This document shows, in pieces, positions 45,147 through 52,375 of a stretch of DNA of 64,000 bases (position 1 is the stretch's first letter; each line of letters starts with the position of its first letter). The notes beneath the pieces were generated by a model. It saw nothing but the letters and a program-made list of their open reading frames with translations. It searched no databases and was not told the origin of the DNA. Position numbers and translations under genes: made by a program. This DNA is from a phage, in the sequence record PZ583738.1; one strand, written 5' to 3'.

Positions 45147-45599
45147 ATGATTATCAATGCAAACTCTTGGCACGTTAAATTACACGACCGTTTTTATGAC
45201 CGTCATTCTCGACCACACTCTTTGTGTGCTTACTTCTGGAAAATGGTTTGGGCTTGTTTTGTTTGTGCTATTGCTGCAGGTAGTATTGGTTTTGGATTAA
45301 CTGTTGCTGGCGCTGGTGTATTAGAGCATTTCTTTGTATTAAGTACTCCTGTTGGTTTGGGTTTGGGTTTTATTTTAGGACTAGCTACGCTGGCTCTTAT
45401 TCTGGCAGTCGCATTTGGTTTGATGTATGGTCTAATGAATCTATGGACCTGGTATGATTTACGTAAAGAAGAAAAGGAATGGCAACGCATTAAAGCTGAG
45501 CGTGAAGGCCGAGAAACTAAAGAAAACGTTTTCATTCAATATATCAAAGCTCGTAAATCTAAGATGTGTCCTATAATCCATTTTGAGGCGAAGAAATGA
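45147..45599 (+). CDS. membrane protein
   Basis: 150 aa; two glycine/alanine-rich transmembrane helices. Confidence 0.5.
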   Translation: MIINANSWHVKLHDRFYDRHSRPHSLCAYFWKMVWACFVCAIAAGSIGFGLTVAGAGVLEHFFVLSTPVGLGLGFILGLATLALILAVAFGLMYGLMNLWTWYDLRKEEKEWQRIKAEREGRETKENVFIQYIKARKSKMCPIIHFEAKK

Positions 45600-46606
45600 G
45601 AACAGTTATGAAAGGCTACTTCGGTAGCCACCTTTATGGAACAAGTACTCCAGAATCTGATGTCGATTTTAAAGAAATCTTTGTTCCGCATCCTCGTGAT
45701 ATTCTACTTGGGACGGCGATGAACCATACCAACCTGAACACGAATAACACGGCTACCAAAAATACAAAAGATGATGTTGACCATGAGCTTTACAGTCTGA
45801 AATATTTCTTTAAACTAGCGGCTGAAGGCGAAACCGTTGCTCTGGACATGATTCACACCCCGGCTGACCTGGTAGTCAAATCCGATTTGCCAGATGTATG
45901 GAAGTTTATCCAGGATAACCGTTCACGGTTTTATACAACTAACATGAAAGCCTATTTAGGGTATGTCCGTAAGCAAGCTTCCAAATATGGTGTTAAAGGT
46001 TCTCGATTGGCTGCACTGCGTGGTGTACTGGCAATCGTTAACCAGATTCCTGAACAGTGGGTCGACTATCAAGAAGGAATCCCTGATAGACTTCGTCGTA
46101 CTAAGGTAGAAGATATCAAACACAGACTCCCTGAAAACGAGTTCTGTGAATGGGTATTCCATAACCATGAGAAAACAGGTCCACAAACGTTCTATACTGT
46201 TCTCGGACGTAAGTACCAAACCACCTTGTCTTTAATCGAGCTCAAGCAATCTCTGAATAAACTCGACGCCGAATATGGTGAACGTGCTCGTAAAGCAGAA
46301 GCTAACGAAGGTATTGATTGGAAAGCACTGAGCCATGCTTATCGTGCAGGGTATCAATTGATGGAAATCTACCAAACAGGTGACTTGGTATTCCCATTGC
46401 GTGAAGCCTCTATCATTAAGCTGATTAAAGCTGGTGAATTACCATTTAAAGAAGTTCAAGAACTTCTTGAAGATACTGTCGATTTAGTTGAAGTTCTGGC
46501 CATCCAGGCTGCTAAGAATGGTATGCCTGATAAGGTAGACATGAAGTTCTGGGACAAGTTTGTTGAAGAGGTATACCTTGACAACCACAATTCCTATTAT
46601 CGTTAA
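45596..46606 (+). CDS. polymerase-beta-superfamily nucleotidyltransferase-like protein
   Basis: 336 aa; N-terminal YFGSHLYGTSTPESDVDF matches the hG[GS]x(9-13)DhD nucleotidyltransferase signature. Confidence 0.55.
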   Translation: MRTVMKGYFGSHLYGTSTPESDVDFKEIFVPHPRDILLGTAMNHTNLNTNNTATKNTKDDVDHELYSLKYFFKLAAEGETVALDMIHTPADLVVKSDLPDVWKFIQDNRSRFYTTNMKAYLGYVRKQASKYGVKGSRLAALRGVLAIVNQIPEQWVDYQEGIPDRLRRTKVEDIKHRLPENEFCEWVFHNHEKTGPQTFYTVLGRKYQTTLSLIELKQSLNKLDAEYGERARKAEANEGIDWKALSHAYRAGYQLMEIYQTGDLVFPLREASIIKLIKAGELPFKEVQELLEDTVDLVEVLAIQAAKNGMPDKVDMKFWDKFVEEVYLDNHNSYYR

Positions 46607-47063: not shown

Positions 47064-47122
47064 TGTACATCAGTATGGGGATAGACGTATAATGTTCCCA
47101 TACTGAGTTACCAAATAAACAA
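47063..47122 (+). repeat. PeSL direct repeat copy 1 (early promoter + stem-loop + leader)
   Basis: About 55 nt nearly identical to 47653-47712 (one-base indel); -35 GTGTAC, -10 TATAAT. Confidence 0.7.
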
Positions 47123-47134
47123 ACGGAGAATAAA

Positions 47135-47341
47135 ATGTTAGAATTAATCAAAGCTGCTGGTGAAAAAGGTCTGATGGTTAACACTCGTGACCCTGAACAA
47201 CGTCAAGCATTTGGTGAGTTAAAAGCCAAAGGTCTGGTTAAAGCATCCCTTGGTATTGGTAATGCTTTGCGTGTGACTTTGACCCCTGCAGGTAAAGCAA
47301 TGTTCTTCCCTAAACCATTACCAAAACGTCGTCGCAAGTGA
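47135..47341 (+). CDS. hypothetical basic small protein
   Basis: 68 aa; C-terminal KRRRK. Confidence 0.5.
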   Translation: MLELIKAAGEKGLMVNTRDPEQRQAFGELKAKGLVKASLGIGNALRVTLTPAGKAMFFPKPLPKRRRK

Positions 47342-47652: not shown

Positions 47653-47712
47653 GTGTACATAGTATGGGGATAGACGTATAATGTTCCCATACTGAGTTAC
47701 CAAATACTGGAG
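47653..47712 (+). repeat. PeSL direct repeat copy 2
   Basis: Near-identical to 47063-47122. Confidence 0.7.
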
Positions 47713-47718
47713 AATAAA

Positions 47719-48243
47719 ATGGAAGCCAAATCAATCTTTAATCTGATTAATTACAATAATGGTAATTTTAAATCAGAAGCACAAAGTAAGTTCTTTAATG
47801 ATGTTGCTTGTGCAGGCGAGATTACAGTATCAGGTGGTCAGACTTATAAAAACGCCTGGAACTGGATTGTGACTGTTGATTCAGTTGGTATTGTTGATGT
47901 GTATAAAAACACCAACAAAAACCGCTCTTTATTCTGGTCAAGAGAGACTAATGCAGAATATCAAGCGGCAAGAGCAAAGAAAAATATGCCTACTGAATCT
48001 GATGTACAAAACATCAAATCAGATATCCAATATTATGATGGTCTGATTGCTGAACAACAAGCAGTGCTTGATAAGTTCAATGAAATCAAGGCGTGTAAAG
48101 AGATTCCTGAATTCATGAGGGAATCAGTTAATGAACAATACAATCTCACTTCAGAGCGTATTGAAACCTATACCAAACAAAGAGCAGAGCGCCAGGTACT
48201 CCTTCAGAAGTTTGAAGAGCGTTTAAAGACGGTTCTCGCATAA
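47719..48243 (+). CDS. hypothetical protein
   Basis: 174 aa; SD GGAGAA. Confidence 0.55.
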   Translation: MEAKSIFNLINYNNGNFKSEAQSKFFNDVACAGEITVSGGQTYKNAWNWIVTVDSVGIVDVYKNTNKNRSLFWSRETNAEYQAARAKKNMPTESDVQNIKSDIQYYDGLIAEQQAVLDKFNEIKACKEIPEFMRESVNEQYNLTSERIETYTKQRAERQVLLQKFEERLKTVLA

Positions 48244-48269
48244 ACGCTTTATACCAAGGATGGTATAAT
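48242..48269 (+). promoter_or_regulatory. middle-promoter-like element (MotA-box-like + -10)
   Basis: AAACGCTTTA then 14 nt then TATAAT; same spacing as element upstream of gene 55. Confidence 0.3.
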
Positions 48270-48306: not shown

Positions 48307-49158
48307 ATGTCGCAAGCAATTAATGAAATTCGTTCTGAAGTTAAAAACGCTGTTAAATTCACAGGACGTATTCCAAGCACTAAAGATGTGGTTTTAAATG
48401 TTCTGTATATGATGTGGAATAAGTTCAATGTTTGTACTAATTCTGCTGAATTCACTAAAATCTTTGAAAAGACCAAAGGTCTTCTTACATTAGAAGACCG
48501 AGTCATGAAAACTCTTCATCGTTCGGGTATGTTGTCTCGCGCTAATGCCAAAATTATTCTTAAAAAATATAACAAAGGTTACGACCTTTATGGTCGTGCG
48601 ATTAGCACCATGACGTTTGATGAAGTGGTTAAAGACCTTTGGAAGAACCAACGTCGTTTACTGGCTCTTGGTGCGCGTCTTGCGAGTGGTCAAGATAAAC
48701 AAATGACCTTTAAAACCAATAATTCTTTAGATTATAAGGTATTCAATGTTATTAAAGGCCAAAATGAAGGCGAATACAGTATTTCTTCTTTTAGTGGATG
48801 TCAATATGAAAACTGGAAATTCCATCTTCGTTTAGCATTGTCTGAACTGGAATGTCATGGTGTTCTTACCTTTTATGATGTTCAAACTGGAGGCGTCCAG
48901 CGTATTAAATTATGCCAAATTAAAGACCGAGTTGAAGTCGAGAGTCCTTCAGAACAAGCTCCTAAAATGGAACCTGTTCCAGTGCGAAGCAATGAAAAAT
49001 ATTCAGAGCAAATTGAGCTTTTCACTAAACAGATTGAAGAACTTAACATCACCATCCAGCAACAAGATGATGAAATTTTCCGCCTGACAGGATTGAACAG
49101 TGCAGCGAAAGCTGAACGTCAGAAACTGATGAACGTTATTAAATTGCTTAAGGATTAA
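48307..49158 (+). CDS. hypothetical protein with C-terminal coiled coil
   Basis: 283 aa; no enzymatic motif recognised. Confidence 0.55.
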   Translation: MSQAINEIRSEVKNAVKFTGRIPSTKDVVLNVLYMMWNKFNVCTNSAEFTKIFEKTKGLLTLEDRVMKTLHRSGMLSRANAKIILKKYNKGYDLYGRAISTMTFDEVVKDLWKNQRRLLALGARLASGQDKQMTFKTNNSLDYKVFNVIKGQNEGEYSISSFSGCQYENWKFHLRLALSELECHGVLTFYDVQTGGVQRIKLCQIKDRVEVESPSEQAPKMEPVPVRSNEKYSEQIELFTKQIEELNITIQQQDDEIFRLTGLNSAAKAERQKLMNVIKLLKD

Positions 49159-49242
49159 TAATGGAATGGCTTGCTGTTCTTGGTTATGTAATCATTGCCA
49201 TAGGTATTCTGTGGCTGATATTCTCAAATATTGTAGGTTAAT

Positions 49243-49458
49243 ATGGAAATAGTAGGTTTTATTCTCCTTTACTTTGTGCTAGGATTCATAACGACCATTA
49301 TCATTCATAAATCGGGTGATTGGAATCCAATCGAAATTGAATCAAGCTATGACGCAGTATTCATTACACTAGTATGGCCTCTACTTTGGTTTGTTTGGGC
49401 AATTATGATGGTGTTTTGGCCTATTGCTAAATTCTATGAAAAATTATTTGGACTATGA
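49243..49458 (+). CDS. small membrane protein
   Basis: 71 aa; two hydrophobic helices. Confidence 0.45.
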   Translation: MEIVGFILLYFVLGFITTIIIHKSGDWNPIEIESSYDAVFITLVWPLLWFVWAIMMVFWPIAKFYEKLFGL

Positions 49459-49459
49459 T

Positions 49460-50332
49460 ATGAAAATTAAAACTCGCGCTGAATATATTAGTATTAGTGG
49501 TTATGAACCACATGACGGTCGTGTGACTCGTCTTATCGCAATGAATTCTTTGGTTAACTTTGGCAAAATCAAATCAGGTTCTGCTACCCAGGGGTATGGT
49601 CAACGTATTGTAAGAATTAACTCTCTGAATGATTACTGCCGTCGCCCAGCGTTTTTGTTTGGTGCCACGGTTCGTAAGAGTATCAAGGAAATTCTGGCCG
49701 GCGGATTTCGTATTCGCAAAGCTCCGGTTAACATCAAGAACTATAATTTCAATTCCAGTAACTTGATTATCAATATCAAGAATGATGGTGTGCAGATTAA
49801 GTTCAAGCCAACCACCAAGGGCGATGTTGCTCTTTGCGATACCTTTAAAGAGGTTATGGGTATTGCACTGTTTTATATGCGTCATGCCGTTGAAGCATAC
49901 ACGTTTGAAGAAGATACAAATTATATCCATCAAACAGAAAAATTCCTTAAAACTATAACCATTGATATTAAATTAACTAAAGAATATCTTTTGTCTTATG
50001 CTCCTTATCAGGAGAAAAAGGAACCAGAAATGGAACGTATCCCTACCGCATCATATGGTCAGTTTAAATCTTATGACCAGGCTAAAATTTCGCCACTGGA
50101 CGTTAAAAACATGTACAAATGGAAAGTCCAACCATCCAGCTCTATTGAAATCTTTAACCCACCAATGAAGCCTATTGAGAAACATCATGCTGATGCTATC
50201 CAGGAATCAGTAAACCGCTTAAATGGTCTGATTGAAGATGAGAAAAAGGGTATCCAGGATGTTCTGAATCGCATCAAGAACATGGAAACGCAACGCAATA
50301 AATTGCAAGCTGCAATCAAAGCATTAAAATAA
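49460..50332 (+). CDS. hypothetical protein with C-terminal coiled coil
   Basis: 290 aa from ATG 49460 (alternative ATG 49436). Confidence 0.5.
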   Translation: MKIKTRAEYISISGYEPHDGRVTRLIAMNSLVNFGKIKSGSATQGYGQRIVRINSLNDYCRRPAFLFGATVRKSIKEILAGGFRIRKAPVNIKNYNFNSSNLIINIKNDGVQIKFKPTTKGDVALCDTFKEVMGIALFYMRHAVEAYTFEEDTNYIHQTEKFLKTITIDIKLTKEYLLSYAPYQEKKEPEMERIPTASYGQFKSYDQAKISPLDVKNMYKWKVQPSSSIEIFNPPMKPIEKHHADAIQESVNRLNGLIEDEKKGIQDVLNRIKNMETQRNKLQAAIKALK

Positions 50333-50333
50333 T

Positions 50334-50363
50334 GTTTACTTCCAAGGATGGAGGGAGTATAAT
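50334..50363 (+). promoter_or_regulatory. early promoter
   Basis: -35 GTTTAC, 18-nt spacer, -10 TATAAT. Confidence 0.5.
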
Positions 50364-50390
50364 GAATTCCTACTTTATGAGGAGAACACT

Positions 50391-51380
50391 ATGACGCGTA
50401 ACGAATATATTCAGGCCTTTAGCACCACTATCGATTCAAAAGTAAAACCATTAATAGGCGAATCGGCTATCCTTTCAATTATCAATTTCTGGTTAAATCA
50501 GATTGACTCGACGATTGTTGCATCTGGTCGCTTCAAGAAAGACATTGCGACTATTGCGAGTCGTGCCGGTAACGATGATATCAAGAAAACTTTTAAAGGT
50601 TCCCGAGTCCTGGCATACCTGGTTAATAAAGACCTTCTTAACAAGTTTGGTGTTGAATCCAGACGTGGTAAAGGTACAATTGGATATCATTGGTTTGGCG
50701 ATGTTGAAAAATACTATCTTGATAAACAAGGCTATACTGCTTCTGAATTCGCAAATTGTTGGGCTCGTGAATTCAGAGATAACAAAATGTCTATCATCAA
50801 ATCAGCGACAAAATTGATGGGTGGCGATTATCGCACTATCTCCCAGCTGGCTGAGCACATGATAAATGTTAAAGAGTCTGGTGAAAACCAGGTAATTATT
50901 ACAGTTAAGTATGGATTCTTTACGCCAGTGGCTACTCCAGAAAATGTCAAAAAGTATTTTGATGCTGCGAGCACGCTTACTTCACAGATGCAGTGCGCCC
51001 TTAACTATATGCACACTGTTGAAAAAATTAAAGTAGACCCTATCACCAGTACTCATGGTTGGAAAGGTTGGAAAATTGTGGTGACATTGCGTGAAGTTAA
51101 ATGCGCAAAACAACCAACTGATGCAGAAATTTATAAAAAGAAAAGTGAGGAAATTATGAATGCACCACAAGAAACCACCCTTGAAGACCTGATTGATAAT
51201 CTGAATAATGAGCCAGTGGAACAAAAAGCGCCTGAAATTGTTGCTCTGGAAATGGCGTATAATAAAGCTCTTGCTGTTAATAAAAAGGCAACTGAAGACT
51301 ATACCAAAGCCAAGCGACTTTGGGAAGAATCAACTAATCGTCTGGATAAACTGGAACAGGCTCTGGAGCTGCTGAAATGA
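50391..51380 (+). CDS. hypothetical protein with C-terminal coiled coil
   Basis: 329 aa; SD GAGGAG. Confidence 0.55.
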   Translation: MTRNEYIQAFSTTIDSKVKPLIGESAILSIINFWLNQIDSTIVASGRFKKDIATIASRAGNDDIKKTFKGSRVLAYLVNKDLLNKFGVESRRGKGTIGYHWFGDVEKYYLDKQGYTASEFANCWAREFRDNKMSIIKSATKLMGGDYRTISQLAEHMINVKESGENQVIITVKYGFFTPVATPENVKKYFDAASTLTSQMQCALNYMHTVEKIKVDPITSTHGWKGWKIVVTLREVKCAKQPTDAEIYKKKSEEIMNAPQETTLEDLIDNLNNEPVEQKAPEIVALEMAYNKALAVNKKATEDYTKAKRLWEESTNRLDKLEQALELLK

Positions 51381-51887: not shown

Positions 51888-52119
51888 AGAATATGTTGAG
51901 ACCGCCGAAAGAGTGGTCCGTGAATTAACTCTGGCCTATTATAAAGAACACGGTAAATTTCCGGATAGTTATTCGGTATTGAAATCCGCTTTAACTCGTT
52001 CGTATAATAATATCCTTACTGAAGTGCATGATATCAGAAATGCACACCTTAAAGAAACCGGGACAGAGCTAGACCGCTCTGAAGTATTCAAACAAGTATT
52101 AGGAATTCAAGATGTTTAA
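51874..52119 (+). CDS. hypothetical small protein
   Basis: 81 aa. Confidence 0.45.
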
Positions 52120-52375
52120 AGTATATGGTTACGATTCAAACATTCATCGTTGCGTTTTCTGTGACAATGCAAAACGTTTACTTGACGTTAAAAAACAACC
52201 TTACGAGTTCATCAATGTTATGCCGGAAAAAGGTGTATTTGATGATGAGAAGATTGCTCAACTCCTGGCTGCGCTTGGTCGCGAATCTCAAATTGGTTTG
52301 ACCATGCCACAGGTATTTGCCCCAGACGGAAGTCATATTGGTGGCTTCGACCAACTGCGAGCATATTTCAAATGA
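52112..52375 (+). CDS. nrdC: thioredoxin/glutaredoxin NrdC
   Basis: 87 aa; [43 protein letters not shown] nearly identical to T4 NrdC; CVFC active site. Confidence 0.95.

Follow-up and report, generated by a model that had tools for sequence, protein, structure and literature searches.

Three tandem early proteins of a T4-like coliphage are likely diverged paralogues with C-terminal heptad helices and a probable counter-defence role

A 64,000-nucleotide stretch of phage DNA (sequence record PZ583738.1; hereafter the window) encodes three large early proteins, p283, p290 and p329, which we identify as homologues of T4 NrdC.6, NrdC.5 and NrdC.4. Our overall reading, held with middling confidence, is that the trio are diverged paralogues of one T-even early family and probably act as counter-defence proteins. 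The 3.7-kb region that carries them shares 96% identity with Escherichia phages TH41 and UPEC01 and has matches in 581 T4-like phage records; the source phage is a T4-like coliphage, Gaprivervirus-like. Annotation of the Gaprivervirus SP18 and of T4 places the three open reading frames (ORFs) in the nrdC.11-to-nrdC early cluster, on the plus strand of the window (Table 1).

An initial annotation, made from the letters of the sequence, had given the ORFs as 283, 290 and 329 aa, in agreement with the ORF list in both coordinates and lengths, and had called the genes unannotated; comparison with T4, Pfam and PHROG overturned the latter description. Blastp against T4 proteins paired p283 with NrdC.6 (49% identity, E 2.7e-51) and p329 with NrdC.4 (49% identity, E 5e-113, homologous over the full length). 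p283 falls in phrog_2257 (E 1.6e-119), its homologues carry PF26899 in 104 cases, and it shares full-length homology with NrdC.6 of T-even phages, the top BFVD match being JS10 nrdC.6 (E 1e-33). p329 falls in phrog_1435 (E 5e-141), with PF26897 on 61 of 61 homologues. p290 is 28% identical to T4 NrdC.5 (E 8e-27 by blastp, 2.7e-23 by phmmer) and is a full-length member of DUF7235, whose hidden Markov model (HMM) covers residues 1-290 at 387.6 bits (cut-off 30), T4 NrdC.5 itself scoring 420.6 bits. Like T4 NrdC.5 it is flanked by NrdC.6 and NrdC.4 and has a tail of the type QRxKLxxAIxALK, and it is the positional orthologue of that protein, from which it differs in being 50 residues shorter at the N-terminus. 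Its start is the ATG at 49460, and homologues open with MKIKTR or MNIKTR. The T4 proteins NrdC.4, NrdC.6 and NrdC.3 (PF26897, PF26899; phrog_1435, phrog_2257) match the present array in order and architecture and are uncharacterised early ORFs; T4 differs in having a fourth large gene, nrdC.3, which the source phage lacks.

We compared the N-terminal heads of the three proteins by sequence, profile and fold. Pairwise BLASTP among p283, p290, p329 and the neighbouring p174 gave nothing significant, and hhalign on the first, shallow family alignments returned P values of only 0.007-0.05. Adding NrdC.3, T4-type NrdC.5 and Mosigvirus members enlarged the families, and because of this enlargement the link between NrdC.4 and NrdC.5 became significant, whereas the link to NrdC.6 did not. 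NrdC.4 and NrdC.5/p290 then aligned at 88.7% over their heads (E 2.6e-6) and at 91.8-92.5% over their full length (E 4.9e-7), along about 231 colinear columns that reach into the tail. T4 NrdC.3 is a bridge between the families: its head aligns with that of NrdC.4 at 98% (E 1.6e-13), and phmmer with NrdC.3 as the query matched NrdC.4 proteins at E 4e-9. In a 197-ORF database an HMM of the NrdC.4 head recovered NrdC.3 at E 3.7e-15, T4 NrdC.5 at 0.007 and p283 at 2.8e-4, the last in a colinear match over residues 25-116. The heads of NrdC.4, NrdC.5 and NrdC.3 are homologous.

Predicted structure supports the addition of the NrdC.6/p283 head to this family. We made AlphaFold2 (AF2) models of p329 and p283 from alignments of 60 and 63 sequences, with a mean predicted local distance difference test score (pLDDT) of 82.6 and 80, respectively, and confident heads, mostly above 90. 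The two models have an identical order of helices and strands, in which an N-terminal bundle of 5-6 helices is followed by a small beta element, two helices, a beta hairpin, a long helix, a second beta hairpin, the linker and the terminal helix. Consistent with this order, hhalign superposes H61-84 of p329 on H62-87 of p283, and H183-206 of p329 with its hairpin on H170-183 of p283 with its hairpin. In BFVD the models share near full-length neighbours at 11-18% identity, mostly with probability 1.0 (A0A7G3KGN9, A0A0A0PZG4, A0A345AUV5, E5E4A2, A0A023W506 and A0A1V0DXL6), from T4-like phages of Enterobacter, Pectobacterium, Acinetobacter, Serratia and Yersinia; among the BFVD matches are two proteins of Acj61 whose accessions are consecutive. 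A Foldseek search of the PDB with the p329 model found nothing below E 0.01 (best E 0.011, a designed protein, at a template modelling (TM) score below 0.2), which indicates a head fold without a solved relative. PDB sequence and profile searches yielded only coiled-coil or designed-repeat noise, and NCBIfam gave nothing above cut-off. We also tried p174 (NrdC.8) as a fourth family member and rejected it, at an hhalign probability below 1% against all four families. The dissimilar N-terminal domains of the initial annotation are therefore dissimilar to BLASTP, but not to profiles (NrdC.4 and NrdC.5) or in fold (p283 and p329).

These comparisons bear on a proposal in which three unrelated heads each gained the same oligomerisation module and the proteins serve as adaptors joining different partners. 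The blindness of BLASTP among the three proteins would fit this proposal, as would phrog_26858, which matches p290 in its tail and p329 in its body, and two proteins that combine NrdC.4-like heads with NrdC.5-type tails, namely NrdC.3 (tail hhalign 72%, E 3.4e-5) and the homologue P0219 (head 36.8 bits, tail 30.1 bits). This mismatch indicates that head and tail histories are not fully congruent, and from the sequences the discordance is the one element of the earlier module idea that appears to have some support. Unrelated heads, however, would not be homologous by profile and fold, nor would NrdC.4 and NrdC.5 align colinearly from head through tail, and we found no evidence for an adaptor function; we regard the proposal as very improbable. 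The picture of different heads on a shared module gave way before the hhalign homology, the common element order and the common BFVD neighbours. Homologous heads in a tandem array point to whole-gene duplication and divergence: the three genes are most likely whole-gene paralogues arisen in this way, not unrelated heads sharing a module.

The C-terminal heptad-rich segments first noticed in all three proteins were borne out. Set against a threshold of at least four unbroken heptads with hydrophobic a and d positions, each protein closes with seven (about 47-50 residues), a run that stops at L-K, 1-2 residues short of the C-terminus. In the AF2 models of p329 and p283 a long, free terminal helix follows a disordered linker: in p329 the head spans residues 1-257 and the linker 259-279, and in p283 the head spans 1-205 and the linker 208-228, with the terminal segment modelled as helices 233-262 and 265-282. 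As a measure of coiled-coil character we used a home-made 28-residue heptad score calibrated on four control proteins (GCN4 9.95, tropomyosin 10.85, T4 lysozyme 4.95, myoglobin 4.9). p290 scored 9.4 and p283 8.05, ranking first and fourth among the 83 ORFs of the window and equalled in 0 of 200 shuffles, compared to 6.95 for p329 (equalled in 17 of 200) and 6.7 for p174. The p329 score is weaker because its core positions are Ala, Asn, Ser, Tyr and Trp. The heptad pattern is thus strong for p290 and p283 and moderate for p329.

Like GCN4, tropomyosin and Smc, p290 and p283 have unbroken heptads with Ile, Leu or Val at a and d, and the models of p283 and p329 show a long isolated helix; they differ from these coiled coils in the small or polar/aromatic core of p329 and in the Arg or Asn found at some a positions. 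The p290 tail gave weak matches to Sec3_CC and Laminin_II in Pfam and to the Smc coiled coil, which fit a coiled-coil composition. On these sequence features the C-terminal helix could oligomerise, as a putative coiled coil. The initial view that the three proteins form a family is supported, and each member carries a conserved C-terminal heptad helix.

The tail is also the more conserved part. In divergent pairs of each family the tails are 64-74% identical and the heads 41-52% (64% and 42%, respectively, among divergent p283 homologues), and the p329 tail is near-invariant even in P0061, a homologue of 35% overall identity. Within the tail, conservation falls from a and d through e and g to b, c and f. 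Such a pattern could also arise if the proteins were one family whose tail is a docking helix for a conserved partner (a host protein, the groove of a repeat-solenoid sensor or another phage protein) and not a self-associating coiled coil, with the head as modulator. The tail being the most conserved part would agree with docking, since even at b, c and f, on its outer side, it is conserved at least as well as the head average; so would a register test that does not favour a and d uniquely, the p329 core rich in Ala, Asn, Ser, Tyr and Trp, and the nature of the Dsr1 sensor, a tetratricopeptide repeat (TPR) solenoid (PMC12803255). The canonical Ile/Leu/Val a/d cores of p290 and p283, continued over seven heptads with scores near those of GCN4 and tropomyosin, argue instead for a coiled coil, and the paralogue tails differ from one another, which implies no single common partner. 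We consider a docking helix unlikely.

A function has been demonstrated for one member of the family. An evolved T4 deletion clone fails to plate on either ECOR17 or dsr1-carrying MG1655, and plating is regained by deletion of dsr1 in ECOR17 or by expression of T4 nrdC.5 in MG1655 with dsr1; Dsr1 is a sirtuin (SIR2) NADase defence (Srikant, Guegler & Laub, eLife 2022; PMC9391042). Our literature searches on nrdC.3-.11 and on anti-Dsr1 activity returned that study as the sole functional datum. The adaptor-like role initially suggested is not supported, the only experimental result for the family being this anti-Dsr1 action (PMC9391042). According to a 2026 preprint, Dsr1 and Avs7 have the TPR sensor domain in common, and this domain recognises the major capsid proteins of phages (PMC12803255). 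The segment nrdC.1-6 of T4 is a block that can be removed on laboratory hosts (PMC9825161).

Reading the trio as paralogous counter-defence proteins, we propose a mechanism in which they would be made before replication, ahead of the late virion proteins. On this reading each combines a helical and alpha/beta head of 200-255 residues, a disordered linker of about 20 residues rich in Pro and charged residues, and a C-terminal amphipathic helix some 48 residues long. The fast-evolving head would bind a host immune protein, which for the NrdC.5 type would be Dsr1 with its TPR sensor, and would thereby block its activation; the slowly evolving tail would form a coiled coil and make the inhibitor multivalent. 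p290 would share the anti-Dsr1 activity by analogy with T4 NrdC.5. p283 and p329 correspond to other paralogues, NrdC.6 and NrdC.4, which have no known phenotype, and these two may target other defence proteins or variants. Proteins related by fold, 12-19% identical, are found in T4-like phages of Klebsiella, Acinetobacter, Pectobacterium, Serratia, Erwinia and Yersinia. A wider version, in which NrdC.3, NrdC.4, NrdC.5 and NrdC.6 form a Straboviridae-wide family of immune-sensor inhibitors, each head fitted to a different defence protein and each coiled-coil tail conferring multivalency, and in which NrdC.4 and NrdC.6 would be further anti-defence proteins not yet recognised as such, is a possibility that we advance tentatively.

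The closest functional analogy is DSAD1, the DSR2 inhibitor of SPbeta phage (PMC10973363, PMC10981675), which is likewise a phage blocker of a sirtuin NADase. The likeness ends there: DSAD1 differs in size, in architecture and in its target sirtuin, DSR2 and not Dsr1. No similarity to it was found below E 0.01 for the p329 fold in the Foldseek search of the PDB, which should cover any deposited DSR2-DSAD1 complexes, or for p283 and p290 in PDB sequence searches.

Several observations weigh against a counter-defence role or against the proposed mechanism. p290, at 28% identity, may not act on Dsr1, and the idea that p283, p290 and p329 would bind or inhibit defence proteins comes by analogy from T4 NrdC.5, whose mechanism was not found in our literature searches. 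p329 has a weakly hydrophobic core. When tail conservation was compared across shifted registers, the outcome was positive for a and d in all three families, yet not uniquely maximal. Finally, NrdC.6 has a profile-profile P of about 0.02, and its link to the others rests on the structure models and the shared Foldseek neighbours.

The genes could alternatively encode host-takeover or metabolic accessory proteins outside immunity, such as scaffolds for nucleotide synthesis or regulators of the nucleoid or of transcription. The proximity of thioredoxin NrdC and of the RlaP-family nucleotidyltransferase NrdC.11 would suit such a role, the N-terminal part is a helical bundle, and function has been demonstrated for just one family member. 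However, we found no Pfam, NCBIfam or PDB match to enzyme, DNA-binding or metabolic families, the genes are not needed on laboratory hosts (PMC9825161), counter-defence is the one phenotype known in the family (PMC9391042), and the "nrdC.x" names record map position only. We judge this alternative rather improbable.

Names have also suggested a more specific role. Many NrdC.4, NrdC.5 and NrdC.6 homologues are labelled "thioredoxin" in GenBank and UniProt, a label whose apparent origin is the nrdC locus tag. Apart from this product name nothing we found favours thioredoxins: the three translations have no thioredoxin or glutaredoxin Pfam match and no CxxC, the modelled fold is unrelated, and the genuine thioredoxin NrdC is encoded by an 87-aa ORF at 52112-52375. 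Sequence and AF2 models refute the identity, which we give practically no chance, and correct a widespread mis-annotation. We likewise set aside the term "nucleotide reductase" used for nrdC.8 in the DRT1 paper, which we judge to be a slip based on the name and not evidence.

The order NrdC.6, NrdC.5-type, NrdC.4 is kept in 15 of 15 fetched loci, to which Tequatrovirus adds NrdC.3, and Mosigvirus has a 6-5-3 array; each of the 15 loci, like the window, has one NrdC.5-type gene in the interval from NrdC.6 to NrdC.4. When 1.84 billion representatives were searched exhaustively by HMMER for the NrdC.4 family, only eight matched at E 1e-3 or better, among them NrdC.3 (P0217) and P0219, which marks the family as narrow in sequence space. 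A scan of viral contigs with the NrdC.4 profile found 13 loci, all T-even-like. The 28% identity of p290 to its T4 counterpart, against 49-69% for neighbouring genes, points to accelerated divergence.

Several members are broken or rearranged. The T4 reference NrdC.6 (275 aa; L002, NC_000866, 52066-52893) no longer matches its homologues after FNKQIEEL and is missing the conserved tail, apparently through a frameshift, whereas NrdC.6 of other T-even phages is 295 aa with the tail, and p283 also keeps it. The NrdC.5-type gene of SP18 (L001, 4649-5553) is split into two coding sequences; NrdC.4 is split in locus L015 (5971-7003) and has its tail deleted in locus L013 (5941-6912). These broken members suggest frequent loss of these accessory genes, and the natural disruptions, together with the removable nrdC.1-6 block, fit dispensable genes of an arms race. 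A different change is seen in NrdC.6 of Shigella phage Sf25 (P0198, 378 aa), in which an internal duplication of about 80 residues (alignment columns 197-279) runs from the last part of the head across the linker into the beginning of the tail.

The genes thus belong to a T-even family that is already partly characterised. What may be new is the placing of NrdC.3, NrdC.4, NrdC.5 and NrdC.6 in one superfamily with a common head fold and a C-terminal heptad helix, which we did not find stated in the literature searched. T4 nrdC.5 is the only gene of the block with a phenotype; if the four proteins share one architecture, NrdC.4 and NrdC.6, found in hundreds of coliphages of the therapeutic type (581-742 phage records), become concrete anti-defence candidates. 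A variable head for specificity joined to a conserved tail for valency would bear on how inhibitors diversify against sirtuin and TPR-sensor defences.

The alpha/beta sub-domain of p329 (about residues 89-233) gave low-ranking but recurrent Foldseek matches to the tail-terminator/tail-completion fold. These were lambda gpU (3fzb/3fz2) at E 0.1-0.3 in the PDB, and BFVD proteins named "tail terminator" or "tail completion protein" at probability up to 0.96 and target-normalised TM 0.33-0.48. The p283 model had no such matches in the BFVD Foldseek search. More speculatively, the modelled sub-domain, expressed early, could act as a decoy for sensors that detect virion proteins.

Table 1. Positions of the three paralogues, their terminal heptad segments and nearby features in the window
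Feature	Position	Strand	Basis or detail
p174, NrdC.8 homologue, 5' neighbour with helical C-terminus	47719..48243	+	67% identity to T4 NrdC.8, E 2.4e-89
CGCTTTA-N12-TATAAT, 5' of p283	48245..48269	+	consensus match only
p283, NrdC.6 homologue, 283 aa	48307..49158	+	ORF list, blastp, PHROG, Pfam, AF2
p283 C-terminal helix, residues 233-282, kink 263-264	49003..49152	+	AF2
p283 heptads, residues 236-281			a = IIIINRI; d = FLQLALL
Small hydrophobic ORF, 26 aa, not a family member	49161-49241	+	sequence read, ORF list
Small hydrophobic ORF, 71 aa, not a family member	49243-49458	+	sequence read, ORF list
p290, NrdC.5-type protein, 290 aa	49460..50332	+	DUF7235, blastp, phmmer, gene position
p290 heptads, residues 244-289	50189..50326	+	a = AVIIIRI; d = ILEVMLL
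Early-promoter-like GTTTAC-N17-TATAAT, 5' of p329	50335..50363	+	consensus match only
p329, NrdC.4 homologue, 329 aa	50391..51380	+	blastp, PHROG, Pfam on homologues, AF2
p329 C-terminal helix, residues 281-328	51231..51374	+	AF2
p329 heptads, residues 283-328			a = IYNYWLL; d = LAAASLL

The three genes had been described as consecutive, which holds for p290 and p329 but not for p283 and p290, between which the two small hydrophobic ORFs intervene. The product of the 26-aa ORF is MEWLAVLGYVIIAIGILWLIFSNIVG. The 71-aa membrane ORF has its stop codon, TGA, at 49456-58, 1 nt before the p290 ATG, and is translationally coupled to p290. T4 encodes its membrane protein NrdC.7 at a different place, in the interval from NrdC.8 to NrdC.6.

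Around the array, p112 matches T4 NrdC.2 (64% identity, E 8.4e-51 by blastp), and the adjoining NrdC.11 (336 aa, 45596-46606) is an early accessory enzyme, an RlaP-type nucleotidyltransferase of the DNA-polymerase-beta family (PF10127, E 1.3e-12; phrog_388). The promoter-like sequence upstream of p283 resembles a T4 middle (MotA-box) promoter. A perfect 46-nt direct repeat, AGTATGGGGATAGACGTATAATGTTCCCATACTGAGTTACCAAATA, lies at 47072-47117 and 47661-47706, upstream of the ORF at 47135-47341 and of NrdC.8 (p174), respectively. It contains a TATAAT -10 element that stands between the arms of an 8-bp inverted repeat, AGTATGGG/CCCATACT, with TGTACA ahead of it, and from its sequence it looks like a promoter-early stem-loop (PeSL) cassette, a type of element for which a role in the shuffling of genes in T4-type phages has been proposed (PMC2839356, PMC4122927).

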